Positions 10,829-55,911 of a stretch of 64,000 nt of DNA are shown one piece after another. This DNA is from Deltaproteobacteria bacterium RIFCSPHIGHO2_02_FULL_44_16 (GTDB lineage Bacteria; UBA10199; 2-02-FULL-44-16). Both the position numbers and the translations under genes were made by a program. The DNA lies in contig MGRM01000012.1 in the NCBI GenBank assembly GCA_001798185.1, forward strand, positions 88,120 to 152,119, given 5' to 3'. The notes under the pieces are model-generated. The model was not told the DNA's origin. It did not search any database and worked only from the letters and a program-made list of their open reading frames with translations. Each line of letters starts with the position of its first letter. The first letter of the stretch is position 1.

Positions 10829-10845
10829 ATTTTCTCTCACATTTT

Positions 10846-10919: not shown

Positions 10920-12782
10920 TCATAACACAAGAAGCAAAAGAGCAAGGAGAAAAATCACACCAAATCCCATACAGGACGCAATATAGATGAGTTCTGATCG
11001 ATGTCGCACGAGTTTCACATTTCCATGAAACATTTCTTTTAGGAATCTTAAAGTACGTGCGCGAAGGTTCGGTGATTCCAAAAGATCTGCAAGAAAATAA
11101 TATCCATCAAAATCAAGGAGAGGACAGAGATTCAAAAGAACAACAACATACGAAAGAGAAGCAAAGAGGAGCGCAAGAGAATCGAACATCGCATGATCGA
11201 TTACGAATGCCATGATCGAAGCAATCCCGGCTGGAATCATATGAGCATAAGGGCCTGCGAGTGTAACAGACATGCGGGGGAAACGTGATGCAGTCCACAT
11301 ATCAGAGGTATCGACAAAAAACATGGGGCCGACCCAATACCAGCCAAAACCGACTCCAAGCACGCGACGTTGAAAATGTTTTACCGTGAGCGCATGCCCT
11401 GCTTCGTGAAAAAGAATGCTCATGAAAAAGAGAGGAAGAAGCCACCATAACCAGATGGGAAAAGTCATCGCACGCTGAAATGCAGAAACAATCGAAACCT
11501 TCTGAGACGAAAAGGAGAAAAGACCGAAAAGGACAACAGAGCCAATAATGCATTGGCCTTTTTTGGAAAAGAACAAACAAGATATTTTTTGGAAGATGCC
11601 TGCAATCCATGCATCAACATCTGAAATATAGTATCTCCACTGAAGAATGCGTGAAAGAACACTGAAACATAAAACGAGACGGGAATGGAACGTATTCTTC
11701 AAGTCTCTTGTTTTCGCATTCCTCCCCTCAATCATGCCTGCAGCACCAAGGTCACTTATTTGCTGGGCAATCACATGAGGGGCAAAAGCTTTGTATTTTT
11801 CAAAATAGGATAAGGTGAGTTCTTTGAGTGTATGATCACCATCGAGAAGTTCCCACAAAAACAATCCTTCTGGTGTCAGCCGATAATAAAGATGCGCCGT
11901 TGGATCGTTCAGGATGAAAGAACGAATTCCATCTTTCGTTTCATATTCTTGAATGATAATTGTTTTGCGTCGGCATGGACGATCGCGAAGTTGCAAAAGA
12001 TCAATAAATTGGAGTCGGGCGCTCGGCTCATCGTGCAAGAACTGAAGCAATGCATCGCGCGAAATAACGAGTAGCTCTGAAGGTTCAACGGCTTTGACTG
12101 TCGCATTTCGTTTCTCTCCTGAAAGCAAAGCCGCTTCCCCGAATGTTGCTCCGGTTTCAAGAAAAGCGAGGGGCTTTTTATTTCCCACTTGATCTGAAGT
12201 TGTCACTTCAACTTTTCCCTGTCTCAACAGATAACATTCTGATCCCATTTCTCCCTCGCGAAGAAGAATTTCTCCTGACCGAACACTTTTCGACTGAAGA
12301 GATGTTGCAAATTTTTTGAGTCGATCAGCCGAAAGTGAAGAAAAAGGAGAGAGTTGTTTCAGAAATGAGGCTCGAAGCAATATTTCGGCCGTCTCTTCAA
12401 AAAGTTTTTTTGCATCTGGCGACTCATCAAGAGCGGCAAGAAAATCCTCACGAGAAAGTGAAAGTGCATGAAGTGTGGTAAGAGCAAATACCGAAGCGGT
12501 CCGTTTTTGATGTTTTGAAAGAAGCGCAATCTCGCCAAAATATTCTCCTGGACCAAGTGTTGCCATGACGACTGGTCCTGAGGAAGATGAAACAGCAACT
12601 TCGGCTCTCCCCTGAAGGATCAGGAAAAAGCGCTCCCCTTCTCCTCCTTCAGCGACAATCTTCACTCCGGAAGAAAAAACCTCTTCCCGAAAATGTTCTG
12701 AAAAAAAAGAAAGCGCCTTGTCGGAAAATAAAGCAAACAAGGACGCTTTCTTGAGCAACCTGACGTAATCTTTGGATGTCAT
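10920..12782 (-). CDS. membrane protein with tandem cyclic-nucleotide-binding domains fused to a site-2-protease-like M50 metalloprotease domain
   Basis: two CAP_ED-like segments (FFLILQGRAEV..GEYFGEIALL and YLLRQGKVEV..GATFGEAALLSGEKRNATVKA); C-terminal hydrophobic helices with HEAGHAL (HExxH) and LLDFDG motifs. Confidence 0.7.
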   Translation of the reverse strand: MTSKDYVRLLKKASLFALFSDKALSFFSEHFREEVFSSGVKIVAEGGEGERFFLILQGRAEVAVSSSSGPVVMATLGPGEYFGEIALLSKHQKRTASVFALTTLHALSLSREDFLAALDESPDAKKLFEETAEILLRASFLKQLSPFSSLSADRLKKFATSLQSKSVRSGEILLREGEMGSECYLLRQGKVEVTTSDQVGNKKPLAFLETGATFGEAALLSGEKRNATVKAVEPSELLVISRDALLQFLHDEPSARLQFIDLLQLRDRPCRRKTIIIQEYETKDGIRSFILNDPTAHLYYRLTPEGLFLWELLDGDHTLKELTLSYFEKYKAFAPHVIAQQISDLGAAGMIEGRNAKTRDLKNTFHSRLVLCFSVLSRILQWRYYISDVDAWIAGIFQKISCLFFSKKGQCIIGSVVLFGLFSFSSQKVSIVSAFQRAMTFPIWLWWLLPLFFMSILFHEAGHALTVKHFQRRVLGVGFGWYWVGPMFFVDTSDMWTASRFPRMSVTLAGPYAHMIPAGIASIMAFVIDHAMFDSLALLFASLSYVVVLLNLCPLLDFDGYYFLADLLESPNLRARTLRFLKEMFHGNVKLVRHRSELIYIASCMGFGVIFLLALLLLVL

Positions 12783-12792
12783 TTTATATTGA

Positions 12793-12993
12793 TTACATCC
12801 CCTTATTCATTTTTGCTGTAAGCTGTTGATCATTTAATTTCCAGTCGATCTTGCGAAATGCATTTGTTTCTTCTGCCGTTAGCTTCACACCAGTTGATTG
12901 CAATGTTCCTATCGGGTTCTTTCGCATCTTCGTTCTAAAACCAATGTCATTCGCCCACTTCTCAACTAACATTTCAATCTCTTTGCGTGCCAT
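12793..12993 (-). CDS. small paralogous peptide 1 (66 aa), NHLP/Nif11-leader-like
   Basis: MARKEIEMLVEKWANDIGFRTKMRKNPIGTLQSTGVKLTAEE...; AGGAGG RBS 6 nt upstream of the ATG; trimmed from the longer ORF. Confidence 0.6.
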   Translation of the reverse strand: MARKEIEMLVEKWANDIGFRTKMRKNPIGTLQSTGVKLTAEETNAFRKIDWKLNDQQLTAKMNKGM

Positions 12994-13006
12994 TCTTCCT
13001 CCTTGT

Positions 13007-13210
13007 TTAAGCAAGCCATTTACTGACACGTGATTGCAATTCTTGATCACTCAACTTCCAATCAATGTTTTTAAAAGCATTCATTTCTTCTGGTGTCAGC
13101 TTCACTCCTGTTGATGTAAGCGTTGCCATCGGATCTTTTCGCATCTTGGTTCTGAAACCAGCATCACTTGTCCATTTTTCGACTAACATTTCAATTTCCT
13201 TGCGCACCAT
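13007..13210 (-). CDS. small paralogous peptide 2 (67 aa)
   Basis: MVRKEIEMLVEKWTSDAGFRTKMRKDPMATLTSTGVKLTPEE...; own RBS. Confidence 0.6.
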   Translation of the reverse strand: MVRKEIEMLVEKWTSDAGFRTKMRKDPMATLTSTGVKLTPEEMNAFKNIDWKLSDQELQSRVSKWLA

Positions 13211-13240
13211 ATAACCTCCCTATGATTTTCGTTCTCATGA

Positions 13241-13438
13241 CTAATACTTATTTATCCTTGCCTTAAGTTCTTCGTCATTTAAACTCCAGTCAATTTTGCG
13301 AAATGCACCCATTTCTTCGTTTGTTAGTTTCACTCCTGTCGATGTGATCGTTCCCATTGGATCTTTGCGCATCTTTGTTCGGAATCCCATATCATTCGTC
13401 CATTTCTCAACCAATCCTTCAATCTCCTTGCGCACCAT
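13241..13438 (-). CDS. small paralogous peptide 3 (65 aa)
   Basis: MVRKEIEGLVEKWTNDMGFRTKMRKDPMGTITSTGVKLTNEE...; AGGAGG RBS. Confidence 0.6.
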   Translation of the reverse strand: MVRKEIEGLVEKWTNDMGFRTKMRKDPMGTITSTGVKLTNEEMGAFRKIDWSLNDEELKARINKY

Positions 13439-13453
13439 ATATCCTCCTTTTGA

Positions 13454-13654
13454 TCAAGGTATCTTAGAAACTCTGGTTTTTAGTTCCTCATCACTTAGTT
13501 TCCAATCAATCTTGCGGAACACTGACATTTCTTCGGGGGTAAGTTTCACTCCCGTTGTTTGCAACGTGTCCTCAGGATTCTGCCGCATGTTCTTGCGAAA
13601 CATCTGGTCGTTCATCCACTTGTCGAACAACATGTCGATTTCTTTTTTTCCCAT
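13454..13654 (-). CDS. small paralogous peptide 4 (66 aa)
   Basis: MGKKEIDMLFDKWMNDQMFRKNMRQNPEDTLQTTGVKLTPEE...; GGAGGAGG RBS; trimmed from the longer ORF. Confidence 0.6.
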   Translation of the reverse strand: MGKKEIDMLFDKWMNDQMFRKNMRQNPEDTLQTTGVKLTPEEMSVFRKIDWKLSDEELKTRVSKIP

Positions 13655-14621
13655 CGTCCTCCTCCTTTGAAAAAAATGAAGCGTTGCGAATAAGCTTCTG
13701 CAGCACTTTTGCTGCAGGCTCAAAAGGTCGCGCTTCCATAAGCGCAGAACGTGCTTTCTCGCAATAAATTTCAGTCACAATCGCTGTCATCCACTTTGCT
13801 CCTGTTGCACTCAGCTGTGTTTGAATTGCACGTCGACTTTTGAGAGAAGATTTTGCATCTTGAAGCGACGTCAAAAAAATTTGCTTTTCCACTCCCTTCA
13901 AACGCTCGAGACAAAAAGCGATTGGAAAGGTTCTCGTGCCATTGGAGATATCCTTACTCTGTTGAGATTCAAAAAGATCATAACAATCTGACGAAAGTTG
14001 ACCCGCAACACCAAGAGCCCTGGCGTATGCCATATAATGTTCAACACATTCTGGATGAGCATTTGCCGTATGTGCTGCAAGGGCTGCAAACATCGCTAAT
14101 TCCTCGCCACTCTTTTTCATGACACTTAACTCAACTGCGTTCGTCGATACTTTACTCTTGTTCACAGATGCAATGTCTTGTTGCTGTCCATCGCTCATGA
14201 TGAGGAGCCCACGCGCAATCGTTTCATGCATGAGATTTTTCTGCTCATGCGAAAGAGAGAGTTTTGCAAGAAGAAGGTGAGGAAACGTGCTGACAAGTGT
14301 TGTTCCTAATATCAATCCTTCTTGAGGAGTTAATTTTCCCTCGTGTTGCAAATCTCCATCCGCAAGATCATCGAGGATATCGATTCCCAAATAGAGTATT
14401 GACGTGAGAACTGGAAGCAAGATGGGAACTTTTTTTGCGGTAATCCCCTCATAGACAGCCGATGGAAGCGAAATAAAGAAAAGTTCACTCTCTTCCGAAA
14501 CGTAGGTTTGAAGACGTTCAACAGCATATGCAAAAAGCCGTCGCTGTTCAGAAGATTGCGACCAGGAAGAGAGTTCATCTTGAAGACGTGACAGAACTTC
14601 AGATGTTTCCGAAGACTTCAA
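13572..14621 (-). CDS. trans-isoprenyl diphosphate synthase-like (polyprenyl synthetase fold) protein
   Basis: first Asp-rich motif DILDDLADGD at the expected position; second motif degenerate (GQLSSDCYDLFE); the 3' end overlaps peptide 4 by about 80 nt in another frame. Confidence 0.55.
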   Translation of the reverse strand: MKSSETSEVLSRLQDELSSWSQSSEQRRLFAYAVERLQTYVSEESELFFISLPSAVYEGITAKKVPILLPVLTSILYLGIDILDDLADGDLQHEGKLTPQEGLILGTTLVSTFPHLLLAKLSLSHEQKNLMHETIARGLLIMSDGQQQDIASVNKSKVSTNAVELSVMKKSGEELAMFAALAAHTANAHPECVEHYMAYARALGVAGQLSSDCYDLFESQQSKDISNGTRTFPIAFCLERLKGVEKQIFLTSLQDAKSSLKSRRAIQTQLSATGAKWMTAIVTEIYCEKARSALMEARPFEPAAKVLQKLIRNASFFSKEEDDGKKRNRHVVRQVDERPDVSQEHAAES

Positions 14622-21796: not shown

Positions 21797-21815
21797 TTAG
21801 GTGCCGTGCACTTAA
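21797..21815. repeat. REP palindrome (RAYT-associated type)
   Basis: TTAGGTGCCGTGCACTTAA, same motif as the copies flanking the RAYT gene. Confidence 0.6.
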
Positions 21816-21953
21816 CTGGGAAAATTCTGATCTCTATTGCTTCAATCACCATTTTGGGGATAAAGGTGAGGAGGATCAAAAGCCGTTATTGTTCGCAACT
21901 TTTTTTCGAGAGCAACGATAATAAAAACGTCAGTGATACTGTAAAGGAATCTT

Positions 21954-22557: not shown

Positions 22558-24075
22558 ATGCTTGCTCAAGTTTACGCCGCTGCACTCGTGGGAATCGAAA
22601 CGCAACTCGTCGAAGTGGAAGTCGACGTTCAAATGCAAGGCCTTCCTGGTTGGAGCATGGTCGGTCTCCTTGAAACCGCGGTCAAAGAAGCGCGCGATCG
22701 CGTGTTGCCAGCGCTTCGAAATTCTGGATATAAACTTCTCAATCGTCGCACCATTGTAAATCTCGCTCCAGGAAATGTGAAAAAAAGTGGAGCTCATTTT
22801 GATCTCCCCATCGCCATCGGCATGCTCACGGCCTGGAATATTTGCAAACCTCATCCAGACAAACGCTATCTTCTGGCTGGCGAATTATCGCTGACGGGAG
22901 AACTTCTTCCCATTAATGGCGCGCTTCTCATGGCTATTGCTGCGCGGGCTCATCAACTCACGGGCATTATTCTTCCGGTTCAAAATGAAGAAGAGGCAAA
23001 ACTTGTCACTTCAACAGAAGTTGTTGGATTTTCAACATTGACCGAAGTCGTTCAATTTCTCAATGGAGAGTTTGTTCCCACAAAACAGATGCCTCCAAAA
23101 AAACAAAAACGAACTGCGCCGCCACTTAATTTTGGAGAAGTGCGCGGTCAGCCGATCGCGAAACGCGCGCTCGAAATTGCTGCTGCGGGCGGACACAACA
23201 TTTTGATGGTCGGAACACCTGGCTCTGGAAAGACAATGCTTGCAGAGAGATTACCCACAATTCTTCCTCCACTGACTTCTGAAGAAAAATTGGAAACGAT
23301 GAAGGTCTTAAGTCTGCATGGACTTCTTCACGATACGATTCTTTCTGACGAACGCCCTTTTCGTGCTCCGCATCATTCTGCTTCGTATGCAGGGCTTATC
23401 GGCGGCGGTGGAGGGATACCGAAACTTGGAGAAATTTCGCTCGCACACAATGGCGTTCTGTTTATGGATGAGCTTGCTGAGTTCAATCGTAATGTCTTGG
23501 AAGTTCTGCGTCAGCCACTCGAGTCTGGTCTCGTCCGTCTTGTTCGCACTGGAGCGAGCGTCACCTATCCTGCTCGCTTTATGTTGGTGGCTGCGATGAA
23601 TCCGTGTCCTTGCGGATATTATGGTCATCCAAAACGTGCGTGTATTTGTAATATGCATCGTATTCAGCATTATCGACGAAAAGTTTCAGGACCACTGATT
23701 GATCGAATCGACATTCACATTGAAGTCGAACCAGTTCCTCATAAAGATCTGATGGGAGATAAACCGACAGAAACATCTGAGATGATTAAACAGCGAGTCC
23801 TCGCAGCACGAAAAATTCAAGAAGCACGCTACGATTCACGCATTGGTTGTAATGCTCAACTCCATGCTCGTGATTTAAAAAAATTCTGTCCTTTTAAAGG
23901 AAATGCAGAATCGCTTCTCGAAAAAGCGACCGAGAAAATGCACCTCTCAGCTCGCTCAACCCATCGCGTATTGAAAATTGCCCGAACCATCGCCGACCTC
24001 GAATCCTCCGACGCCCTCGGCCCACCTCATATCGCCGAAGCACTGCAGTATAGGCCTACGGATGATGTGCATTAA
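22558..24075 (+). CDS. comM: Mg-chelatase-like AAA ATPase YifB/ComM
   Basis: N-terminal MLAQVYAAALVGIETQLVEVEVD; Walker A GTPGSGKT; C-terminal ChlI-like region. Confidence 0.85.
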   Translation: MLAQVYAAALVGIETQLVEVEVDVQMQGLPGWSMVGLLETAVKEARDRVLPALRNSGYKLLNRRTIVNLAPGNVKKSGAHFDLPIAIGMLTAWNICKPHPDKRYLLAGELSLTGELLPINGALLMAIAARAHQLTGIILPVQNEEEAKLVTSTEVVGFSTLTEVVQFLNGEFVPTKQMPPKKQKRTAPPLNFGEVRGQPIAKRALEIAAAGGHNILMVGTPGSGKTMLAERLPTILPPLTSEEKLETMKVLSLHGLLHDTILSDERPFRAPHHSASYAGLIGGGGGIPKLGEISLAHNGVLFMDELAEFNRNVLEVLRQPLESGLVRLVRTGASVTYPARFMLVAAMNPCPCGYYGHPKRACICNMHRIQHYRRKVSGPLIDRIDIHIEVEPVPHKDLMGDKPTETSEMIKQRVLAARKIQEARYDSRIGCNAQLHARDLKKFCPFKGNAESLLEKATEKMHLSARSTHRVLKIARTIADLESSDALGPPHIAEALQYRPTDDVH

Positions 24076-24090
24076 GTGCCGTGCACTTAA
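24072..24090. repeat. REP palindrome overlapping the comM stop
   Basis: TTAAGTGCCGTGCACTTAA. Confidence 0.65.
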
Positions 24091-24111
24091 TTGAGAAAAA
24101 AGAGGCTTATA

Positions 24112-24741
24112 ATGCCCCGCTACCCCATAATTCATATTCCCGACGGAATTTATTCAGTAACCAGCAAATGCAACAATAATGAATTTCTCTTTGACGCTGA
24201 AGAGAAGTTTCAATTGTATTTACATCATCTCCTAGAATGTAAACGCAAATTGAATTTCATTATCTATGATCTCTGTTGTATGTCGAACCATGTGCATGAA
24301 CTTTATCGTGTCACCCGTGGAATTACGATTGCGGATATTCTTCACACCGTTCGTGGACATTTTTCTCAAAAATTTAATACTCGTTTTGGGCGAAGCGGAC
24401 ATTTTTGGAAAAGCAAACCTTACTATCGTATTGTTGAAGACGAGCAATATGCATTTCATCTCATGAATTATTTTCACTTAAATCCTGTAAAGGCCGGCCT
24501 TGTTGATAAACCTGAAAATTGGCCTTATTCAGGATATCGCTTTCATATGCTCGGGGACCGAAAAGGACTTATGGGGAGACTACTTAATCAAATTCCTGGA
24601 ACTTCGAAATCCACAACATCAGTCGATTCTGAAAACTTGTATTTGAACAAGTTACTTCAACGACGTCGATTACGATTTATTGGAACAGAAGAGTTTATAA
24701 ACAGCATGCAGACAAGATATAAACGAGATAGCGAGAAATAA
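24112..24741 (+). mobile_element. REP-associated tyrosine transposase (RAYT, IS200/IS605 TnpA-like HUH Y1 transposase)
   Basis: MPRYPIIHIPDGIYSVTS N-terminus; HuH motif SNHVHEL; YFHLNPVKAGLVDKPENWPYSGY catalytic-Tyr motif; flanked by REP palindromes. Confidence 0.8.
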
Positions 24742-24815
24742 GTGCCGTGCACTTAAATGAAAAAATTCTCGCTTTAAATGCATTTTTCTTCCAAATAAGT
24801 GCACGGCACTTAAGT
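24739..24815. repeat. inverted pair of REP palindromes (BIME-like) immediately 3' of the RAYT gene
   Basis: TAAGTGCCGTGCACTTAA at 24739-24756 and the inverted copy TAAGTGCACGGCACTTAAG at 24797-24815, separated by about 40 bp. Confidence 0.65.
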
Positions 24816-30293: not shown

Positions 30294-30317
30294 GACCATC
30301 TGAAAAACTTCAAAAAT

Positions 30318-30387
30318 GTCATTCCCGCGCAGGCGGGAATCCAGTATTGTCAGTAACTTCTGGATCCCTGCCTTCGCAGGGATGACA
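30318..30387. repeat. family-1 double-hairpin element, copy c (between convergent genes)
   Basis: GTCATTCCCGCGCAGGCGGGAATCC...GGATCCCTGCCTTCGCAGGGATGACAA. Confidence 0.8.
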
Positions 30388-35248: not shown

Positions 35249-35671
35249 CTATGAGATATGAATTCTTTTTTGTAAATTTTTTGAAACCGCAGTAATCGCC
35301 GGAATAAAGGAATTCCTGATCAACAGATAGATCTCATAGGCTTTATCAGCAGAATAAATGTGAACAATTTCATTTCTTTTTTTTACGATAAGAGGGAAAA
35401 TTTCTTCGCTTTCTTGCGATACCAATCCGATCTTAAAAGCTTCTTTAAAACATTGAAGAGGAGTTGCTGTTTCAACCCCTTCTTCCAGGAGCAATTCTTT
35501 TAAAAGTTTCCAAAGAGTTTCATAGGTATATTCGAAACGCTTTGTGACAATTTCAATAATGATCTCTTCTTTATATTGAGCACGAAACGTATCTGAGACC
35601 GCTTCATTTAATTTTTCGAAGCTTGCTTTAAAGTCTTCAAAAGATCGCTGCAATTTTTCCCCACGTGCCAT
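35249..35671 (-). CDS. nucleotidyltransferase substrate-binding (HEPN-like, HI0074 family) protein
   Basis: 140 aa helical protein; pairs with the upstream MNT gene. Confidence 0.55.
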   Translation of the reverse strand: MARGEKLQRSFEDFKASFEKLNEAVSDTFRAQYKEEIIIEIVTKRFEYTYETLWKLLKELLLEEGVETATPLQCFKEAFKIGLVSQESEEIFPLIVKKRNEIVHIYSADKAYEIYLLIRNSFIPAITAVSKNLQKRIHIS

Positions 35672-37345: not shown

Positions 37346-37888
37346 TTGTCATTATCTAAGTGCATGAAAAAAAGCGAAATGTTACAGGCACTTAAGCTCC
37401 TAGATAGTCGACTTCCAAAAAAAGTCACGATGCTTATTGGAGGTGGATCGGCGATGCTTCTGGCTCACGATGTTCCTCTTACAACGGCAGACATTGACGG
37501 ACTTCCTCTCTCAACTGATCTGAGTCCCGCTGAACTCGACAATATTGTCAAGGACGTTGGCCAAGAATTGAAAATCGGAGGTCAATGGTACAACTCTTAT
37601 TTCAGCACCTTCACCTACTCTCTTCCCAAGGATTTTCGCGATCGACTCATCACCGTCTATAAAGGAAAAATGCTCCACGCTCTTGCTCTCGGTGCAGAAG
37701 ATATTCTCATCATGAAATGTTTTGCAGGAAGAGAAAAAGATATCGGGCACGCCAAAGCTTTGATCAAACGTGGCGCTGACACCGACCTGGTGGAACACCA
37801 GCTTGATAACCTTCAGGGAAAAGGACTTCCTGGAGCTGAAAATGCTTTGGATTTTCTACATGATTTACTCGATCAACTTGAGGTTTGA
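37346..37888 (+). CDS. hypothetical protein with a nucleotidyltransferase-fold-like motif
   Basis: LIGGGSAMLLAHDVPLTTADIDGL resembles the GS...D.D NTase signature; translationally coupled (ATGA) to the next gene. Confidence 0.35.
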   Translation: MSLSKCMKKSEMLQALKLLDSRLPKKVTMLIGGGSAMLLAHDVPLTTADIDGLPLSTDLSPAELDNIVKDVGQELKIGGQWYNSYFSTFTYSLPKDFRDRLITVYKGKMLHALALGAEDILIMKCFAGREKDIGHAKALIKRGADTDLVEHQLDNLQGKGLPGAENALDFLHDLLDQLEV

Positions 37889-38687: not shown

Positions 38688-40331
38688 CTAATGATGAAAA
38701 TGCCGTTTACCGGTGAAGACCATGGCGATATTATGTTCATTGGCAGCTTCAATGACTTCATCATCGCGAAGAGAGCCACCGGGTTGGATGATGGCTGTGA
38801 TCCCTGCTTTTGCTGCAATATCAACACCATCACGAAAAGGAAAAAAGGCATCCGACCCCAGGGACTGCGTCCCTCTTCTGGGTATTTTTTGGGAGTTCAA
38901 TTTTTTAATTGCTTGTTCAACTGCATCCACTCGACTTGTCTGGCCAGCGCCGATACCAAAGGTTTGATCTTCTGATGCAATCACAATGGCATTAGACTTC
39001 ACATGTTTACACAGTCTCCATGCAAAGTTAAGAGCTACACCCTCTTCCTGGGATGGTGAACGTTTGGTCACGATTTGATATTGATGAATGTTTTCTTCTC
39101 CCACATCTCGATCTTGAACCAGCAAACCACCTGCAACTTTGCGAAGGGTCAATCCTGGAGAAGCTCCTCGTTTTCCTAAACCCTCCACTTCCAGCAAACG
39201 AAGATTTTTTTTCTTCGACAAAAGTACTTTTGCTTCATCTGAAAACGATGGCGCCAAAATCACTTCAAAAAAAGTTTCCCCGATCGCCTCTGCAGTCGCT
39301 TTATCGAGTTCTCGACTCAGCGCCACAATACCACCAAAAGCCGAAAGCGCATCGGCATCTCGCGCTTTGCAAAATGCATCCGCGAGAGACATTGATGAAA
39401 CTGAGGCCCCGCAGGGATTTGCGTGCTTGATGATGACAGCAGCAAAAGGAGCATCATTGAAATCTTTGATCACCGAAAGAGCCGCATCAGCATCCATAAT
39501 ATTGTTGTAGGAGAGCTCTTTCCCGTGAAGTTGTCGCGCATTGAAAATGCTTGGCTCAGACAAACTGTCATTCCCGCGAAGGCGGGAATCTCCTGAGATC
39601 CCTGCTTTCGCAGGGATGACAACCATATTACTCACATCACGATAGAGCGCAGCTCTCTGATGCGGATTTTCTCCATATCTCAAGGCTTGCGCCTTTTCAT
39701 AGATAAGTCCTAGCGTTTTGGGGAAATCTGCAACCTTTTCTTCATTCTCAAATCCAGTAAGATAGTTTGCAATCGCTGCATCATACCGAGCCGTCGTTGC
39801 AAAAACTTTTTGTGCTAAACGGAACTTCGTTCCTTTCGAAAGTTCTCCCTGATTTTTTTTCATTTCTTCAAGCACCGACACATAATCAGCATGATCCACA
39901 ATAACCGCAACATCGTGATAATTCTTCGCAGCAGCGCGAAGCATGGTCGGACCACCGATATCGATATGTTCGATGGCGTGAGACAAGGAGCAACCATCAG
40001 CAACGGTTTTTTCAAAAGCATAGAGATTGACCACAACAAGATCGATCGTCTCGATCTTTTGTTCTTTCAGTTCCTGCAGATGAATTTTGTTTTGACGAAT
40101 CGCAAGCAGACCACCATGAATTTTCGGATGAAGTGTTTTCAGTCTTCCATCGAGAATTTCAGGAGAACCGGTGTAATCGGAAACATCTCTCACTACAATT
40201 CCAGCATCTCGCAAAACTTTTGCCGTTCCTCCGGTCGAAAGAATTTCAACGCCAAGCGCGGCAAGCTCTTGAGCAAAAGCAACAATGCCGGTTTTGTCGG
40301 TAACACTGATAAGAGCACGTTTGATTTTCAT
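38688..40331 (-). CDS. purH: bifunctional AICAR transformylase / IMP cyclohydrolase; carries an in-frame repeat insertion
   Basis: MGS-like N-terminal domain; YGENPHQ; ELSYNNI; AICARFT C-terminal domain. Confidence 0.9.
39557..39612. repeat. family-1 double-hairpin element inserted in-frame in the purH interdomain linker
   Basis: GTCATTCCCGCGAAGGCGGGAATCTCCTGAGATCCCTGCTTTCGCAGGGATGACAA; adds [19 protein letters not shown] between YGENPHQ..LYRDVSN and ..[12 protein letters not shown]. Confidence 0.8.
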
Positions 40332-47184: not shown

Positions 47185-47652
47185 TTATTTTTTTTGTTTC
47201 TCTTTTTGACGCTTGATTTCTCGAAGATATCGAAGATCTTCTTTATCTTTCGGTCGTCCAGCTGCTTTTTTCATTTTGATGAGATCATCAAGGGAAGCAA
47301 AAAATGTTGGTACGCCTTCGTACTCACCTGGAACTTTGTTCTGCAATGCTGATTTCGTTTCTATTCCGGCTGCAAAGGGGTGAATATCTGTTTCAATCCA
47401 GTATTGGCGAAAAAGAATTTTTCGGGTTTGAAAATCCTGTACACTTGCATCTGCCGTGTCATAACCAAACATTTCCAGAGCGCTTTTAACACGGAGAATA
47501 TTTTCTTCTTCTGGGTCAACGAGTATATCGATATCTTCCGTTGCCCGAACAAAACCGTGCGCTGCACATGCCTGAGCACCGATGATCGCATAATGAACTC
47601 TATTTTCGTTTAAGAATTTGATAAGGTTTTCGATCTTCATATTTCTTTGCAA
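47185..47652 (-). CDS. hypothetical nucleotidyltransferase-fold-like protein
   Basis: IIGAQACAAHGFVRATEDIDILV pattern, similar to the protein at 37346. Confidence 0.35.
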   Translation of the reverse strand: MQRNMKIENLIKFLNENRVHYAIIGAQACAAHGFVRATEDIDILVDPEEENILRVKSALEMFGYDTADASVQDFQTRKILFRQYWIETDIHPFAAGIETKSALQNKVPGEYEGVPTFFASLDDLIKMKKAAGRPKDKEDLRYLREIKRQKEKQKK

Positions 47653-47782
47653 GTTTCAACATACGTTGTGAGAGTTCAAGAAGTTTGCGAATACGCTGGG
47701 CTTGCGTAAAAGTGAGACTGCACTTGACATCAAACTCAAGTTCTTTTTTTGGATCATCTTTTTCAAGTTTAAGCATCGCCAT
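47600..47782 (-). CDS. small hypothetical protein (60 aa), possible partner of the downstream gene
   Basis: short ORF overlapping the next gene's start; weak. Confidence 0.2.
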   Translation of the reverse strand: MAMLKLEKDDPKKELEFDVKCSLTFTQAQRIRKLLELSQRMLKLAKKYEDRKPYQILKRK

Positions 47783-47821: not shown

Positions 47822-49006
47822 TCAAAGGGCGAGTTCACCGCGCATGACGACAATGACATCAGCACCACCTAAGAACTGATCAAAGAGTTCGTTGCCAGTG
47901 GGATGCGAAGAAAGCGTTGTCTCCAAATGAAGAGCGATTTCACCGTGATCATAAGGTTCAATGGTTTTCAATGTAAGTTTCTCAATCACGATATCGACAA
48001 TGGCCGCCATTCCCACCGTAACCTGATCGACCGGCACTTCACCAAGCACCACGCGAATACGAAACGCAACATTGGAAAGTTCCAAACGCGAACCATCGAA
48101 CGTTCCTTCAGCCACTTCTCCTGGCGCTCCTGAAATAATAAGTGTCGCCGTAACACCTGACGGAAGTTGAGAAATTTCCTGACTTCGCAAATACATCACG
48201 ACCGGTGGAAACTCGTCCATACGAAGCGTTGCAGCAGTTCCAGAAATCGAAAGACGAACAGGACCGGTCAGTTCCAAATCTTTTGGGCCGTCGGGAATCA
48301 GTCCCGGAATATCGAGCGCAAATCCACCCGTGTAACATGCCGTCCCATCACCTGGACTGCATTCACCAGGAACGACACCACTCTCTTCTTCTCCTCGCGG
48401 CCCTGGAAGGGCCTTCCCGACAAGCTGCACAAAAACAATCCCCTCGCGCGGAAAATCGTACACCAATTGCACAATCGCCCTCTGCAGGGCTCCGCCCTTT
48501 TCTATGCCTTCGTTTGTTGCTTCCTCGAGAGGCTGAGGTTGCCATCTTTCCGGAACACCTGTTTCCCAACCACCGTAATTTGCGAGTGACGTTTCTAAAT
48601 TAAGAGGAGAATAGGTGAATTGTAATTTCAGAATACTTCCCGGTGGAACAACAATATCTTGAGGAGAAACAATTTGATCTCCAACCATAATGGAGTCGAG
48701 ATGAAAATGACCTGCGGCATTACTGACCGCATCAAATTTCACGAGCCGGAGATGCTGCTCTTCTGTGGTACTCGGATTTCCAATCGTGATCGTTGTTTTT
48801 TTGGATTCCGTAATACGTGTTTCACCGAATTCCTGCAGACGCATATCCGCAAACTGCCCACCACTGCCGCTGCAAGAATTTAAGACCAGAGGGCAAAGAA
48901 CAAAAACGAGAGAGTAGAAAGTTAAGCACCAAACTGGTGAAGATTTTTGAGAAATGTGAGCCAGTTTGGTTTCCTTGAAACTAAAAAATGTTGAGTTCAT
49001 GGTCAT
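47822..49006 (-). CDS. hypothetical lipoprotein
   Basis: hydrophobic signal ending ...LVLNSC followed by SGSG. Confidence 0.4.
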   Translation of the reverse strand: MTMNSTFFSFKETKLAHISQKSSPVWCLTFYSLVFVLCPLVLNSCSGSGGQFADMRLQEFGETRITESKKTTITIGNPSTTEEQHLRLVKFDAVSNAAGHFHLDSIMVGDQIVSPQDIVVPPGSILKLQFTYSPLNLETSLANYGGWETGVPERWQPQPLEEATNEGIEKGGALQRAIVQLVYDFPREGIVFVQLVGKALPGPRGEEESGVVPGECSPGDGTACYTGGFALDIPGLIPDGPKDLELTGPVRLSISGTAATLRMDEFPPVVMYLRSQEISQLPSGVTATLIISGAPGEVAEGTFDGSRLELSNVAFRIRVVLGEVPVDQVTVGMAAIVDIVIEKLTLKTIEPYDHGEIALHLETTLSSHPTGNELFDQFLGGADVIVVMRGELAL

Positions 49007-49082
49007 AGGCCTAATCTTTGAGTCAAGTCTTGCCAAGACACACTGCATCAGCTGCACTGTGTCACTTATCGCTGGATTTTAT

Positions 49083-49136
49083 GAAAGGTTGCGGCTTTTT
49101 ACCTGTTCCATAATATGCGGGGCGTCGGTGAGGGGG
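49083..49136. repeat. duplicated purF 3'-end fragment (distal direct repeat)
   Basis: 41 nt identical to 50921-50961 (TTTTTACCTGTTCCATAATATGCGGGGCGTCGGTGAGGGGG) plus an upstream AAAGGTTGCG match with an indel. Confidence 0.8.
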
Positions 49137-49180
49137 CACGTTATGAATTGGTGTAAGGGCCGAGAAGGGATTTATTAACC

Positions 49181-49774
49181 TCAAACTCTCATAGCATCGT
49201 AAAGCGCATTTTTTTCAGCAGAAGTTAGCTTTCTTCCGAGATCATATAGGGTATATTGATATCCGTTATCGCTCAATTGTTGAACCCAGCCTGCTTTAAG
49301 GATACCTACGAAAATTCTGGATGGTAGCTCATGCACACAGGTTGAAGTTGAAACAAGAACTGCGTCTTTGATGCCCAGCATCTTGCTCGCATCTACAGTG
49401 AGCCATGAGGGAGTAATGACCTGTGTTGGCTTCCGTATTGCTGACATACTTTTAGTAGCTTGTTCACGAAGTCTTTCATGGAGTTGTCCGCTTGTTTCAC
49501 CCGGTTTCTGTAATATTTGTTGTGTTCTTGTAAAAATTAACCTTTCAAACTGAAGTGGTCTTATATTTTTGTCCACCGGAAAACCTGATCGAAAAACACC
49601 GTTTGAGTCCCATCCAGTGGGTAAATGTTCTAAATTTGGTTGTGGGGGCGAGGAGGCTCCAGCATCTCCATCAAAATGCGGAGGGATGCTCGTTGAAGCA
49701 TCGGGCTGACCTGCGCCTTTGATAGCTGGTTTTCCCGGGTCTACTAGTGGCGGTCCTGCCATAAAACCTCCCAT
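49181..49774 (-). CDS. hypothetical protein (197 aa)
   Basis: ORF only. Confidence 0.35.
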   Translation of the reverse strand: MGGFMAGPPLVDPGKPAIKGAGQPDASTSIPPHFDGDAGASSPPQPNLEHLPTGWDSNGVFRSGFPVDKNIRPLQFERLIFTRTQQILQKPGETSGQLHERLREQATKSMSAIRKPTQVITPSWLTVDASKMLGIKDAVLVSTSTCVHELPSRIFVGILKAGWVQQLSDNGYQYTLYDLGRKLTSAEKNALYDAMRV

Positions 49775-49804
49775 TTAGGGCCTGTTTCCTTTAAAGAGGA
49801 GGAT

Positions 49805-50836
49805 TTAAAGCGATGCGACGCGCGTGTTAACAGGACCTTCCGAAAGATCGGGAAGCTCGCCCCTTTGATCGAGAGCATCGAGAGTCTCAGCTATGTCCAT
49901 CGCGATGGCATCGAGAATGCTGTGATCTTCAATGGTAGTAACCCACCTTCCATTCTCAATCCATTCTGTGTCCTTATGGAGACGTTCATGCGCAAAGACT
50001 CGCCAGATGTGCTTGCTGATCCAACGAGGGTCACGAGGATCTCGTCCCATTCGCTTGATCGCGGCAGTGAAAAATTCATGAGGTTCATGAAGAGCATTGA
50101 TGAATTCAGTATCGACAAAGATTGCCGTTTTTCCCTCACCAATCGAAACGGTCGAGGCCAAGATATGCTGATTTGGGTGTTGTGGGTCCTTCGGGAAAGC
50201 ATCATTTATTCGCCCTTTGACAACCACATATCTCTGATCCGTGCTCACCATTCGTCGATACAGGTTGCTCCACTCATTATCCGTAAGACCCGTCTCTCTG
50301 CCCGAGAGCTTTATTTCTGAGGCGATAAAATCGTGTATATACTTTGCGACCTCGGGCACAGTGAAGAGACGAGAGACAATTCTATTTCTCCGCATCAGCC
50401 AACGATGCTCCGAAGGCGTAGGATCTCGATATGAAATCACTTGTCCTTCAGCCACAAGGCTATAGGGATAAACTTCTGCAGATTCTGCTAATGCTTGAGT
50501 TTGATTCGACAATGATACTGCGCTGCCTGTTTCAATGATGGGTTGACTTTGAGTTGGTTCTGGTTGAACGGGATCTGTTTTGACTGGTTTTTTCTCAGAA
50601 AAAAAGATCCTCTGACCTACAGATATAAGATTGGGATTGAAGATCGTATTGATCGCCGTGAGACGTTGAACTTCACCCCAAATCTGTTTTGCCGTAAAAG
50701 TGGTTGAATCGGTGGTCTCTTGAAGATGTTTTTTAGCAATACCCCAAAGGGTATCGCCCCTATCGACATCTTTATAGGAACCTTCTTTTGTTTCTGCCCT
50801 CTTTGGACGGCAGGGGGAAAGGCCTTTGATCGCCAT
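49805..50836 (-). CDS. LysM-domain protein
   Basis: GDTLWGIAKKH...NPNLISVGQRIFF LysM-like motif near the N-terminus. Confidence 0.45.
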   Translation of the reverse strand: MAIKGLSPCRPKRAETKEGSYKDVDRGDTLWGIAKKHLQETTDSTTFTAKQIWGEVQRLTAINTIFNPNLISVGQRIFFSEKKPVKTDPVQPEPTQSQPIIETGSAVSLSNQTQALAESAEVYPYSLVAEGQVISYRDPTPSEHRWLMRRNRIVSRLFTVPEVAKYIHDFIASEIKLSGRETGLTDNEWSNLYRRMVSTDQRYVVVKGRINDAFPKDPQHPNQHILASTVSIGEGKTAIFVDTEFINALHEPHEFFTAAIKRMGRDPRDPRWISKHIWRVFAHERLHKDTEWIENGRWVTTIEDHSILDAIAMDIAETLDALDQRGELPDLSEGPVNTRVASL

Positions 50837-50899
50837 AAGGTCGCTCCGTTAATTCCCACTCCCCCGACATCTCGTATGGATTATCGGCCGATGGCCCCA

Positions 50900-50961
50900 A
50901 AAGGTTGCGTCAATTTTTACTTTTTACCTGTTCCATAATATGCGGGGCGTCGGTGAGGGGG
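50900..50961. repeat. proximal direct repeat, which is the authentic purF 3' end
   Basis: see 49083-49136. Confidence 0.8.
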
Positions 50962-52295
50962 ACGGGATAGTTTCCGGTAAAGCAGGCATCGCAAAACCAT
51001 TCGCGCGATTCGAGCTTGTTGAACCAATAGAGCCCTTCGTGGGAAAGATAGCCAAGAGAATCGGCCGTGATAAACGCACGAATCTGTTCGATCGATTGAT
51101 TCGCTGCAATGAGTTCTTCGCGCGTCGGAAGATCAATACCATAAAAACAGGGCCAGGTAATGGGTGGACTGGAAACACGCATGTGGACTTCTTTGGCTCC
51201 TGCAGCGCGAATCATCTTGATGATTTTCATCGATGTGGTTCCACGAACAATCGAATCATCCACAACCACAACACGTTTTCCTTGAAGCACTTCTTTGACT
51301 GGATTGAGTTTTACGCGAACACCAAAATGACGAATCTCATTTTTCGGTTCAATAAACGTTCGACCGACATAATGATTTCGAATCAGTCCCATTTCATACG
51401 GAAGACCGGATTCCTGCGCATACCCAATCGCCGCAGGGACACCTGAGTCCGGAACGGGAATCACGACATCGGCATCGACCGGATGTTCACGCGCCAGTTG
51501 CTGACCAAATCCTTTTCGAATCGGATAAACATCGCGACCAAAAATGTGACTGTCAGGTCGCGCGAAATAGATGTACTCAAAAATACAGTGCGCTTTTTTT
51601 GGTTCTGAAGGAAATGGTTTGAACGACTGCAGCCCTTTTTTATCAAAGGTGACGATTTCTCCTGGCTCCACTTCGCGTAAGAATGTTGCATCCATCAGAT
51701 CGAGCGCACACGGTTCAGAAACAACGACAAAGGCATCAGCCAGTTTTCCAATCACCAGCGGACGAAAACCTCGAGGATCACGAGCAGCAATGAGCATATC
51801 CTTTGAAAGAAAAACCAGGGAGTAGGCCCCTTCTACTTTTATGAGTGAACGCGCAATGCGATCAACTAAAGTTCCTTCGCGTTCGCGCGCAATCAGATGC
51901 ATAATCACTTCAGTATCCATGGTGGACTGAAAAACAGCTCCCTCTTTTTCGAGCATTTCTTTCAAATAGAGTGCATTGGTCAGATTTCCGTTATGGGAAA
52001 TCGCGAGCGCTTCCCGCGCTCCCCCTGCAGCAAAAGGTTGTGCATTTTCGATCGTTGAAGATCCTGTGGTGGAATATCGCACATGACCAAGCGCAGCATT
52101 TCCACGAAGCGAAGCAATCACATCGTTTGTAAAAATATCGAGCGCCTCTCCCATCGCTTTATGTCGATAAAAAGTTTCATTCGAAACAGAAATAATCCCA
52201 GCGCTCTCTTGTCCACGATGCTGCTGTGCACAGAGCGCAAGATACGCCAGATTCGCTGCTTCATTATGATTCCAAACTCCAACCACACCGCACAT
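50910..52295 (-). CDS. purF: amidophosphoribosyltransferase
   Basis: MCGVVGV N-terminal nucleophile; PRTase domain. Confidence 0.9.
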
Positions 52296-52504: not shown

Positions 52505-54718
52505 TTAAGAAAACATTTTCCCAAACGCATCTTTCCACACATTATAGAGTTCCACTAAATCCGTATGAATCCATTGATTGATGGAGAGCGAACGACCTCC
52601 AACCTGTCCAATCACCGTAGCCTTCACTCCCTCTTCTTTGGCAATCGTTAAAAATGTTTCCACCATATTTGGACTTACCGAAATAACAATTCGCGAAGCA
52701 GCTTCACCAAAAAGGATCGCATCCGCTCTTATTTCCTCAGCGATTTCAACCTTTACACCAAGAAGTCCTGTGGGGCGTGCGAACGAACATTCCGCCAAAC
52801 AGATCGCAAGTCCTCCCTCCGAAACATCATGCGCTGATTTTATAAATCCTCGTTTGATGCCGAGACGACATATTTTCTGCACCCCCACTTCCTGACGCAA
52901 ATCCAAATGAGGTGGAAGACCTGCGGTCTTTCCATGCATCACGGAGAGATATTCACTCCCTCCAAATTCCGCAGTATTCGCTCCAAAAAGGATAATGATA
53001 TCTCCTTCATCTTTCCACCAAGGCGTTGCATGTTTTTCAACATCATCCAAAAGACCGACCATCGCAATGGTTGGCGTGGGATTGATCGCTTTTCCTTTGG
53101 TCTCATTATAGAGACTGACATTTCCGCTGATCACAGGTGTTTCAAGCGCGCGACACGCATCTGAAATCCCACGCACCGCTTGCTCAAACTGCCACATGAT
53201 TTCCGGTTTTTCCGGATTTCCAAAATTGAGACAATCGGTAATTGCCAAAGGTGTTGCGCCAACACAGGAAAGATTTCGAGCTGCTTCAGCAACTGCTAAC
53301 GCCGCGCCGGTGTAAGGGTTCAAAAGACAGTAACGACTGTTACAATCGCTTGTGAGCGCAATCGCTTTTTTTGTTCCCTTGATTCGAATGAGCGCAGCAT
53401 CAGCTCCGGGACCGATGACGGTGTTCGTCATGACCGTATGATCGTATTGTTCCCAGACCCATCCTTTGTAACTCAGGTTTGGCGAAGAGATGAGTTTTAA
53501 GAGTACGTGATTAAAATCACGAGGAACAGGAAGCGCATCGACATCAAGTGTATTGAACATTTTCTGTGTTTCGGGTTCTTTGCGCGGGCGATCATACAGC
53601 GGTGCTTCGTCTGAAATGGGTGCAACCGGCATATCGACCACAAGCTTTTCATGATGATAAATCTGCACCCGACCCATATCGGTCACTTCACCCACAACTG
53701 CCATATCGATGTCCCACTTTTTGCAAATGGCTTCGACCACTTCTTCTTTTCCTTTTTGCGCGACAAGCAGCATTCGCTCTTGAGATTCAGAAAGCATAAT
53801 TTCATACGCTGTCATCCCCTCTTCGCGCTGTGGAACATGATCTAAATTCAGTTTCATCCCCATCGCTGCGCGACTTGCCATCTCAAAGGAGGAGCATGTA
53901 AGACCTGCTGCTCCCATATCTTGAATTCCGATAATCGCATCGGTCTGCATCAGTTCCAAACAGGCTTCAAGCAAAAGCTTCTCCATAAAGGGATCGCCGA
54001 CTTGAACTGTCGGACGACTCTCGTCAGTATTTTCATCAAATTCATCAGACGCCATCGTTGCTCCATGGATTCCATCTCGTCCTGTTTTGGAGCCAATATA
54101 AATAACGGGATTTCCAAGGCCTGCAGCCTTCCCTTTAAAGATTTTATTCGATGCAAGAAGACCGACGGTAAAAGCATTCACCAAAATATTTTGATCGTAA
54201 CACTCATCAAACGAAACTTCTCCACCCACAGTGGGGATCCCCATTGTGTTTCCATAACCGCCAATGCCTGCAACCACACCCTTTACGAGCTGTTTGGTTT
54301 TGGGATGATCAGGTTTTCCAAAACGAAGACTGTTAAGATTTGCAATCGGGCGAGCCCCCATCGTGAAGATATCGCGCAAGATTCCACCAACACCGGTCGC
54401 AGCCCCCTGATACGGTTCTATATATGAAGGATGATTGTGACTCTCCATCTTGAAACAGACAGCGAGTCCATCTCCGATATCAACAATCCCAGCGTTCTCT
54501 CCAGGACCTTGCAGGACACGAGGACCACTTGTCGGAAATTTTTTTAAGTGTATGCGCGAACTTTTATACGAACAATGTTCAGACCACATGACCGAACAGA
54601 TACCGAGTTCAGTAAAATTCGGTTCGCGTCCGAGAAGCGAGCAGAGATGCGCATACTCTTCTGGTGTCAGACCATGCTGATCAATAAGCTCAGGTGTTAT
54701 CTGTGTTGCTTGTTCCAT
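52505..54718 (-). CDS. purL: phosphoribosylformylglycinamidine synthase subunit PurL
   Basis: PurM-like duplicated domains; typical N-terminus [22 protein letters not shown]. Confidence 0.9.
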
Positions 54719-55395
54719 TGTAAAAGCGACTCCCAAATTTTAAATCCATCTCTATTCCCTAACATTTCTTCTGAGCATCGCTCAGGATGCGGCATCAAAC
54801 CAAAAACATTCTTGGTTTCATTACAAATCCCTGCAATTGATTCCACAGAACCATTCGGATTCGCATCATCATCAAGGTCACCGGATGCTGTGGCATAGCG
54901 AAGAATAATTTGGTTATTTTGTTTCAGTTTTTCCAAGCCTCGCGGTTCAAGAAAAAAACTTCCATCCATATGCGCAATCGGAATTTTTAAGACTTCATTT
55001 CGACGATTGGAAAAAGTAAACGGTGTTTCATTATTTTCAACGCGTACAAAAAGATCCTTACAAATAAATGAAAGAGATTTATTGCGCATGAGCGCACCTG
55101 GAAGAAGACGAGCCTCTTGCAAAATTTGAAATCCATTACAGATGCCAAAGACTAAACCACCACTTGCCGCATAATCGCGAACCGATTTCATAATGGGAGC
55201 GCATGCCGCCATAGCACCTGAGCGAAGATAGTCGCCATAGGAAAAGCCACCCGGAAGGACTACGCAGTCGACACCTTGAAGATAGGTTTCTTTATGCCAC
55301 AAAAAAATCGCTTCTTCGCCGAGCACGTTGGTAATCACGTGATGACAGTCGTGATCGCAATTACTTCCTGGAAAAATGACGATACCAAATTTCAT
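54697..55395 (-). CDS. purQ: phosphoribosylformylglycinamidine synthase glutaminase subunit PurQ
   Basis: class-I amidotransferase; [14 protein letters not shown]. Confidence 0.9.
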
Positions 55396-55401: not shown

Positions 55402-55560
55402 CCAAATTCAAAACGTCTCTCGGAGGCAACCTCTCACTACGGCAAAAATCCTCACACGCCAGATTTTTGCCTGCGCTTCAGCCTGCTGGGTATTGAGGCT
55501 TCGTTTCCAGCGTCTGAAGACGCCGCTCGAGGCTCGCCTCCTTCGGCCGTTTTTAAATTA
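55402..55560. repeat. family-2 structured element, copy b, intercistronic between purS and purQ
   Basis: about 90% identical to 10003-10150. Confidence 0.75.
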
Positions 55561-55800: not shown

Positions 55801-55826
55801 AATAACTCCTATCCCAAACTGATTTT

Positions 55827-55911
55827 GTCATCCCTGCGAAGGCAGGGATCCAGAAGCTTGTCCCCACGAAGGTGGGGATTTCACTGGATTCCCGCCTACG
55901 CGAGAATGACA
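55827..55911. repeat. family-1 element, copy e (three-hairpin variant) between purB and purS
   Basis: GTCATCCCTGCGAAGGCAGGGATCC...GTCCCCACGAAGGTGGGGAT...GGATTCCCGCCTACGCGAGAATGACA. Confidence 0.8.

Follow-up and report, generated by a model that had tools for sequence, protein, structure and literature searches.

A two-gene cassette between two copies of the purF 3′ end

We analysed 64,000 nt of contig MGRM01000012.1 of Deltaproteobacteria bacterium RIFCSPHIGHO2_02_FULL_44_16 (this whole stretch is called the window below), in which the amidophosphoribosyltransferase gene, purF, is separated from a downstream lipoprotein gene by a small cassette and by a second, displaced copy of the purF 3′ end (Table 1). 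The cassette holds two minus-strand open reading frames (ORFs), 30 nt apart, which encode a LysM protein of 343 amino acids (aa) and a 197-aa protein; an initial annotation of the sequence had likewise placed a LysM-protein gene and a hypothetical gene between the copies.

The two copies share an exact direct repeat of 42 nt, CTTTTTACCTGTTCCATAATATGCGGGGCGTCGGTGAGGGGG, at a spacing of 1825 nt. We designate the displaced copy A and the one at the end of purF copy B. Beyond a 9-nt insertion/deletion (indel) relative to each other, both copies continue with a second identical segment of 10 nt (AAAGGTTGCG; 49084-49093 and 50900-50909), which reads CGCAACCTTT in the orientation of purF. The tail between the block and this segment is TAAAAATTGA in copy B versus a single C in copy A, and the order of the parts is common to both copies: the 42-nt block, the tail, CGCAACCTTT and a palindrome-like part. 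The imperfect direct repeats of about 55 bp, with one indel and 1.8 kb apart, that had been noticed initially are thus resolved into 42 nt, a 9-nt indel and 10 nt. It had also been noticed that the purF 3′ end itself recurs. This is correct, with the amendment that the block lies entirely within the purF coding sequence and ends 7 nt ahead of the stop codon, and that the 10-nt segment of copy B is placed just 3′ of this stop codon.

Copy B is the true 3′ end of purF, in frame and translated as …EQVKSKN-stop. Copy A, when read in the purF frame, gives …EQVKSRNLS-stop. It is a displaced pseudo-end, 67 nt before the next gene, and is untranslated, with stop codons directly upstream. We found no purF homology upstream of the block in copy A, and the arm that follows this copy retains only CGCAACCTTT and a degenerate palindrome (ATCCAGCGATAA vs ATCGGCCGATAA).

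We observed both copies at the same spacing in every spanning contig (independent re-assemblies from the European Nucleotide Archive, NCBI GCA_001799065.1, JGI and Logan). Because all these independent assemblies agree, the arrangement is not an assembly artefact. When up to 3 mismatches were allowed, the 42-nt block had only two matches in the window and none in 100 dinucleotide-preserving shuffles. The repeat is therefore not a dispersed family with more copies, which the initial annotation had considered as a possible refutation; the true dispersed palindromes of the window (described below) have a different sequence.

The copies are diverged versions of one segment

The identity between the copies is 42 of 42 positions in the block and 24 of 49 in the adjoining aligned columns (Fisher p=5e-9), and all the synonymous sites inside the block are identical. 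As the identity drops abruptly at the edge of the block, a fresh duplication followed by uniform decay is excluded. Purifying selection on purF cannot explain the block either, because its synonymous sites are all identical while the adjacent sequence is half diverged. From the distribution of identity and from the 9-nt replacement in the tail, we concluded that the copies are two diverged versions of one segment joined at the identity block, as in the attachment sites attL and attR of an integrated element, and are not a fresh target-site duplication. In their layout they would behave like attL and attR, or like the product of any single crossover, joined or homogenised across the block.

Properties of the cargo genes

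The 343-aa protein carries LysM at its N-terminus, and its C-terminal domain has a conserved AHERLHxDT motif of the HExxH type. We found no evident signal peptide, and no known family covers the C-terminal region. In a word-indexed search, 5.8 billion proteins yielded nothing but the protein itself. Using HMMER with the C-terminal 248 residues against 1.84 billion cluster representatives, we obtained one remote homologue (P0007, E=2e-15), which has the same architecture, ∼30% identity over nearly the full length and the AHERLHxDT motif in common with the cargo protein. P0007 is encoded among unrelated small genes and toxin–antitoxin genes, with no 197-aa homologue nearby. The AlphaFold2 model of the 343-aa protein had a predicted local distance difference test score (pLDDT) of 47. 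The LysM domain suggests peptidoglycan binding and the HExxH motif hints at a metallopeptidase; this protein may be cell-wall-directed and possibly zinc-dependent.

The 197-aa protein consists of a disordered N-terminus and a conserved C-terminal domain of ∼125 aa. It had no match in profile searches with Pfam, PHROGs, PADLOC or PDB. Its AlphaFold2 model (pLDDT 55 overall) is confident only for about residues 85-197 (pLDDT about 70-80), and a Foldseek search with this model gave no match of E below 0.9 and hence no fold relative. The 197-aa protein has eight relatives in total. Both cargo families are thus extremely rare, and the LysM and 197-aa families were never found together outside this locus. 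The gene for the 197-aa protein has the most atypical synonymous codon usage of the 54 genes of the window (z=-2.7).

With tblastn, 50,697 phage records and 72,556 plasmid records gave no match to either cargo protein, and scans of viral contigs gave no relatives of them. PADLOC matches were absent from the cargo, and PHROGs matches were confined to the LysM-bearing N-terminus. The cassette consists of the two ORFs only, with no integrase, relaxase, transfer or transposase gene, as the initial annotation had stated for the integrase, and the ends of the insert have no terminal inverted repeats. The region also contains no Rfam family, and neither a promoter nor a terminator could be recognised convincingly in the space from purF to the cargo genes.

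The purF locus in related genomes

A single scan of a genome collection with purF gave 80 related loci, the best being L014-L016 at 73, 71 and 68% PurF identity. No closer relative was found. Across the 80 loci, we saw neither a second copy of the own purF 3′ end nor a homologue of one or the other cargo gene. The gene after purF in L014-L016 encodes an NAD-dependent epimerase, next to which L014 and L015 have a gene for an FG-GAP protein; an orthologue of the lipoprotein gene then follows in L015 and L016. Such orthologues lie downstream of purF in L015, L016 and L029. The epimerase and FG-GAP genes of the relatives are absent from the window.

Given that the 80 related loci hold no homologue of the cargo and that the relatives have a different gene order, the two-gene cargo is, by this comparison, foreign to the purF locus, in agreement with what had been supposed initially. 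The gene order of the relatives, and the absence of the epimerase and FG-GAP genes from the window, also indicate that in this lineage the purF end was first brought beside the region upstream of the lipoprotein gene, with the two-gene module now between them. The PurF tails of the relatives differ freely after the conserved CDACF motif, which is where the repeat lies. A crossover in this variable C-terminal tail would therefore have preserved the PurF enzyme.

The arm that follows copy B, CGCAACCTTTTGGGGCCATCGGCCGATAA, occurs once in the window. We observed that this motif recurs upstream of the lipoprotein orthologue in L016 (11093-11119; z=11.9 against shuffles, E=0.008 against all the fetched loci) and, more weakly, in L015 (9358-9386; z=4.2). 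The conserved intergenic motif holds a perfect palindrome of 10-12 nt (ATCGGCCGAT; TCGGCATGCCGA in L015). It may be an operator-like site, of which the target gene has been displaced by the insert. For the downstream arm of copy A, colinearity with the region upstream of the relatives' lipoprotein gene seemed plausible by eye; this was discarded, as z was 0.9 or less.

Homologues of the 197-aa protein in cassettes at tRNA-Arg genes

The cargo genes have relatives in other contexts. Besides P0007 among its toxin–antitoxin genes, we found homologues of the 197-aa protein, 59-62% identical, in a cassette of ∼0.83 kb whose nucleotide sequence is conserved from CCCGAAGAACGAAAAAC up to and including the gene. 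It is situated directly 3′ of two different tRNA-Arg genes, with anticodon ACG in L094-L097 and TCT in L098, and it ends in the 3′ half of a pseudo-tRNA, GGTTCTAAAAGCGTCCAGTTGGGCGC, 10-30 nt past the stop codon of the gene. In L098, the pseudo-tRNA half is followed by a repeat of the left end of the cassette (69 nt, 87% identical), while in L094 a second pseudo-tRNA half follows after a T5orf172 and Bro-N gene pair. L094 also has a partial upstream copy of the 5′ part of the tRNA. No integrase was found in the tRNA-Arg cassettes that hold the 197-aa homologues. The genes around these cassettes (Bro-N, T5orf172, AbiEi, methylases and ParB) are typical cargo of genomic islands.

Tandem accretion is on record for cis-mobilizable elements (CIMEs), which are integrative elements that have decayed but still have their att sites (PMC5704250). 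The tRNA-Arg arrays match this accretion pattern, and by analogy they appear to be integrase-less mini-elements.

Three integrase-less cassettes, each bounded by a repeat of a gene 3′ end, thus have a member of the 197-aa family at their distal edge, and at all three sites (purF, tRNA-Arg ACG and tRNA-Arg TCT) the stop codon of this member is found some 10-45 nt ahead of the distal repeat. The other members of the family are stand-alone short genes without such repeats. The link of this family to gene-3′-end repeats is therefore suggestive and not general. In our judgement it is very improbable that the 197-aa family determines mobility, or is an essential cofactor for it, in a new class of minimal 0.8-1.8-kb cassettes which settle at gene 3′ ends and duplicate the gene end together with some downstream DNA.

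Two further members of the family were looked at. Around a short 197-aa homologue in L105, the flanking repeats turned out to be a dispersed element resembling repetitive extragenic palindromic (REP) sequences and similar terminators, and not a duplicated gene end. The contig L100 (JGI 3300022670, 3837 nt) has identical ends (1-144 and 3694-3837, over 144 nt), which suggests a 3693-bp circle or a tandem repeat. It contains a frameshifted 197-aa homologue, a Tudor/Agenet-like small protein and membrane/lipoprotein ORFs, with no replication or integration gene.

Table 1. Coordinates of the features at the purF locus (positions in the window) and of the tRNA-Arg cassettes (positions in the respective loci)
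Feature	Position	Strand	Remarks
purF (amidophosphoribosyltransferase), intact target gene	50910..52295	-	repeat in the variable C-terminal tail, past the CDACF motif
Repeat copy B, attL-like; exact block in the 3′ coding end of intact purF	50920..50961	-	translation …EQVKSKN-stop
Right arm of copy B, CGCAACCTTTTGGGGCCATCGGCCGATAA with palindrome ATCGGCCGAT	50881..50909	-	begins directly after the purF stop codon
Inserted foreign segment, ∼1.73 kb	49137..50870	-	right limit approximate, at the point where copy B ceases to resemble the relatives
Cargo gene 1, 343-aa protein, N-terminal LysM	49805..50836	-	Pfam LysM E=5.5e-6
Cargo gene 2, 197-aa protein, no family	49181..49774	-	stop codon 44 nt before copy A
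Repeat copy A, attR-like; exact block of the displaced purF pseudo-terminus	49095..49136	-	without upstream purF homology
purF′ pseudo-3′ end	49079..49136	-	purF-frame reading …VKSRNLS-stop, upstream stop codons
Second identity segment of copy A, CGCAACCTTT	49084..49093	-	past the 9-nt indel relative to copy B
Lipoprotein gene, 394 aa from ATG 49006	47822..49006	-	lipobox LNSC; gene downstream of the insertion
tRNA-Arg cassette, L094	9556-9625, 9721-9795, 10601-10627, 12564-12590
tRNA-Arg cassette, L098	956-1084, 1836-1916

Origin of the structure

On these data we lean, with some reserve, towards the explanation that the structure is what remains of a Campbell-type (single-crossover) event in which a small foreign DNA integrated at the purF 3′ end. 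As the junction of purF with the intergenic motif is common to both repeat copies, the chromosome before the event would have read purF, the short intergenic motif and the lipoprotein gene. The incoming DNA would have carried the two cargo genes together with some 80-100 nt homologous to the end of purF and to the intergenic segment, and it would have recombined with the resident copy inside the 42-nt stretch of perfect identity. The resulting order, as seen in the window, is intact purF (…VKSKN-stop), the LysM/HExxH-type gene, the 197-aa gene, the untranslated pseudo-terminus (…VKSRNLS-stop) and the lipoprotein gene. Since there is no recombinase in the insert and none recognisable within the 64 kb, the insert is non-autonomous. 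It could move or be lost in future only via a recombinase supplied in trans or by RecA-dependent recombination between the 42-nt repeats, and either route of loss would restore the purF–lipoprotein junction. The form of the incoming DNA (circular or linear), the position of the crossover, the enzyme (a tyrosine or serine integrase, or RecA) and the present-day mobility are what we infer in this reconstruction. By analogy, the insert may be compared with a decayed integrative element that keeps attL and attR, and could be called CIME-like; the finding would then be an integration scar or a decayed integrative islet, placed at a protein-coding gene's 3′ end and of an already known type.

The initial annotation had read the duplicated end as the signature of site-specific integration that regenerates the terminus of the target gene. 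The attL/attR layout agrees with the integration, but a site-specific recombinase as its agent is without support and homology-driven recombination is a live alternative. Its further proposal, that the cassette is a remnant or is mobilised in trans, fits the 197-aa homologues in the integrase-less tRNA-Arg cassettes.

Several observations weigh against the Campbell-type explanation. The first group concerns the missing partners of the reaction. The survey for recombinases covered essentially every ORF of at least 90 aa in the window, by Pfam scan or precomputed annotation, and it revealed no recognisable tyrosine- or serine-type integrase. All but one of these ORFs are of housekeeping or toxin–antitoxin type (uvrA, pyrE/pyrF-type, pur, pgi, ssb, addAB-like and the Mla transporter). 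The only gene of mobility type is a Y1/IS200-like gene (24091-24741), 25 kb from the insert, and to our knowledge this class of enzyme does not generate long direct repeats. We also found no convincing recombinase core in the 42-nt block; of the att-like core that the initial annotation had suggested looking for within the repeat, the sole candidate is a 9-nt palindrome, CATATTATG, which is not convincing.

The second group concerns the missing forms of the locus. No cassette-free strain was present among the contigs reaching the region, in look-ups of the exact purF, LysM, lipoprotein and pgi proteins; the members of the purF cluster in the sister-strain look-up were fragments or unrelated peptides. 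The uninterrupted purF junction that related strains might have shown was not encountered, the nearest relatives having the epimerase after purF. The predicted empty-site (attB) junction is AACTATCCCGT, the 42-nt block and CCGCAACCTTTCATAAAATCC. The predicted circular (attP) junction is CCAATTCATAACGTG, the block and TAAAAATTGACGCAACCTTTTGG, the form of the 1825-bp circle being CATAACGTG, the block and TAAAAATTGACGC. When JGI metagenome contigs were scanned, the empty-site junction and the core gave 0 matches each; as the core scan also missed the known JGI copy, these two results carry no weight. In the contigs examined, neither a circular junction nor a presence/absence polymorphism was found.

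The third group concerns composition and the nature of the arms. The GC content of the cassette is unremarkable, and the codon usage of the LysM gene is only mildly atypical (z=-1.2). The DNA that completes purF is, from its conservation in the relatives, of chromosomal type and not an element-specific attP arm. The simplest integrase model is thereby strained, because the arm completing purF would be element DNA in that model. A chromosomal-type arm could mean that the donor was a sister lineage already with the purF–motif junction, or that copy B is wholly resident and copy A imported or decayed; a further option is that the crossover lay elsewhere.

The same arm figures in the alternative that survives best, which we consider a serious rival, though less likely. 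Here, linear DNA from a sister lineage would have entered by homology-facilitated illegitimate recombination, with one end anchored by homology on the purF or the lipoprotein/pgi side and the other joined illegitimately at the left edge of copy A. There would be no circle and no att site, and the copies would be donor and recipient alleles. The chromosomal-like arm of copy B, conserved in L016 and L015, speaks for this alternative, and the lineage-specific fusion of the purF end with CGCAACCTTT is present in both copies, which differ in the manner of diverged alleles. It is also in keeping with the lack of a recognised recombinase in the insert or window, and the missing epimerase and FG-GAP genes imply that the locus has a history of rearrangement. 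However, such a donor must already have had the cassette beside purF, so that the origin is merely moved back one step, and the 197-aa cassettes bounded by tRNA 3′-end repeats are left unexplained. Moreover, a block of 42/42 identity beside ∼50% divergence looks like a crossover and would be unexpected for alleles that merely abut.

The non-uniform identity also bears on an in-place duplication, which we regard as improbable. In this scheme, a target of about 80-100 nt would have been duplicated by a long staggered cut or by replication template switching, after which copy A decayed and the 42-nt block was kept identical by gene conversion. In its favour, the direct repeats flank the insert exactly and have the same order of segments in both copies. 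But the differences are strongly non-uniform (42/42 vs 24/49, p=5e-9), and the change in the tail is a complex replacement (C vs TAAAAATTGA) and not a simple deletion. A length of 42 nt barely exceeds the minimum for efficient RecA-mediated conversion. The insert has neither terminal inverted repeats nor a transposase, and we know of no transposase that makes target duplications as long as this repeat.

Finally, that there was no insertion at all, the two genes being ancestral and lost in the relatives and the repeat being a chance match or an assembly artefact, is scarcely credible: the cassette is fixed in all sampled contigs and its GC is ordinary, but a chance match is excluded (0 in 100 shuffles), six or more independent assemblies agree on a repeat that is shorter than the assembly k-mers, and the cargo is absent from the related loci, with its rare homologues in unrelated contexts rich in mobile and defence genes.

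Other features of the window

Several small insertions or repeats were noted elsewhere in the window. Small accessory pairs of the nucleotidyltransferase/HEPN type are found among the housekeeping genes (47185-47782, 37346-37888 and 35249-35671). A 60-aa ORF and a DUF6036 nucleotidyltransferase gene are situated between the lipoprotein gene and pgi, and there are also a second DUF6036 gene and a HepT-like gene. Accessory pairs so near to purF imply that this locus holds more than one small insertion.

The Y1/IS200-like transposase gene mentioned above (+ strand, Pfam Y1_Tnp E=1e-7) lies between hairpin repeats, TAAGTGCCGTGCACTTAA, at 24073-24115 and 24739-24781, with a third copy 2.3 kb upstream at 21798-21840. 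This unit looks like an IS200/IS605-type or a REP-associated (RAYT-like) element. Paired palindromes of another kind (TGTCATTCCCGCGAAGGCGGGAATC … GATTCCCGC..GCGGGAATGACA) are dispersed in intergenic positions (3586-3651, 10845-10915, 30316-30387, 39565-39621 and 55825-55911), and the same family occurs in L015 (about 9455-9530) and L016 (about 11195-11275). In type it resembles REP sequences or miniature inverted-repeat transposable elements. This family differs from the purF repeat, and it was probably the one that the initial annotation had been wary of as a dispersed family.

We also observed a 150-nt element in two copies only in the window (9999-10150 and 55408-55559, minus strand), with a core about 93% identical. 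Downstream of the copies, at a distance of 25-35 nt, are the start codons of pyrF (9268-9978) and purQ (54697-55395). The element is strongly structured (minimum free energy -64.9 kcal/mol, z=-4.1) and matched no Rfam family at the two thresholds used. The element may be a small mobile repeat, or else a leader or riboswitch-like element, so far undescribed, that serves nucleotide-biosynthesis genes. At 12802-13665, four tandem units of ∼203-217 nt, 63-73% identical, lie between the cNMP-binding/M50-like and polyprenyl synthetase genes.

Significance and comparison with known systems

By itself, the structure at purF is a textbook integration scar and changes no established view; the only route to novelty would be that the 197-aa family itself mediates the insertion of minimal cassettes. 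If the favoured explanation is true, an uncultivated groundwater lineage of candidate-phylum level (Rifle aquifer), which was formerly filed under ‘Deltaproteobacteria’, has very small islets that lack an integrase and are placed, on att-like repeats, where essential genes end; the rare 197-aa family then recurs in such islets at the tRNA-Arg genes of related genomes. The 42-nt core and the pseudo-tRNA half would then be searchable handles for finding the missing recombinase or helper element, and with them one could study the spread of near-ORFan genes among uncultivated bacteria.

Among the known classes of small inserts, a transposon or insertion sequence with target-site duplication is ruled out by a repeat of at least 42 nt, by copies that diverge beyond the block and by the lack of inverted repeats and of a transposase; the repeat is far longer than any target-site duplication known to us. 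A prophage or phage satellite is ruled out likewise, as the PHROGs matches are limited to the LysM N-terminus and no relatives were present in the phage and plasmid records or the viral contigs searched.

Integron cassettes and integrative mobile elements exploiting Xer (IMEX) resemble the insert in being short units without an integrase of their own and with direct repeats at the flanks. An integron cassette is ruled out by the spaces of 30 nt and 44 nt, which leave no room for an attC-like hairpin, by the absence of an attC-like imperfect palindrome and by the absence of IntI (Pfam). An IMEX is expected at the replication terminus, flanked by dif or pseudo-dif sites in which a 6-nt spacer parts two arms of 11 nt. 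The block has GCATA-TTATG without a central spacer and does not show the two-arm dif layout, and IMEX was rejected. The cumulative GC skew is monotonic through the locus, which thus has no terminus; this also argues against an IMEX.

The closest textbook case is e14 in icd with its icdC pseudo-end (PMC13626634). As in e14, integration would have taken place in the 3′ coding end of a metabolic gene, with the element supplying an alternative functional C-terminus and the original end persisting, displaced, as a fragment of a pseudogene; a few residues distinguish the two ends. However, e14 is 15 kb long, with its own integrase and SOS-induced excision, whereas the purF insert has 1.8 kb, no recombinase and no phage genes.

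In tRNA-targeted genomic islands the setting is exactly that of the 197-aa homologues in L094 and L098, namely a full tRNA-Arg gene, the cassette and a pseudo-tRNA 3′ half. The purF cassette has the same layout, but its target is protein-coding; no integrase adjoins either site.

CIMEs are decayed integrative and conjugative elements (ICEs) or integrative and mobilizable elements (IMEs), still with attL and attR but without integrase and transfer genes (PMC5704250). Like them, the purF islet is small and inserted at a housekeeping gene's 3′ end, has direct repeats of which one completes the target gene, and lacks integration or transfer genes; tandem accretion is seen in the homologous tRNA-Arg cassettes. 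Examples of this arrangement are the CIMEs that occupy the fda 3′ end in Streptococcus thermophilus. Unlike them, the purF insert is much smaller at 1.8 kb, one of its repeat arms is chromosomal-like and no cognate ICE, IME or integrase is known for the site. We liken the purF islet to CIMEs from its sequence layout, and the likeness extends to this layout and not to the mobility of CIMEs.

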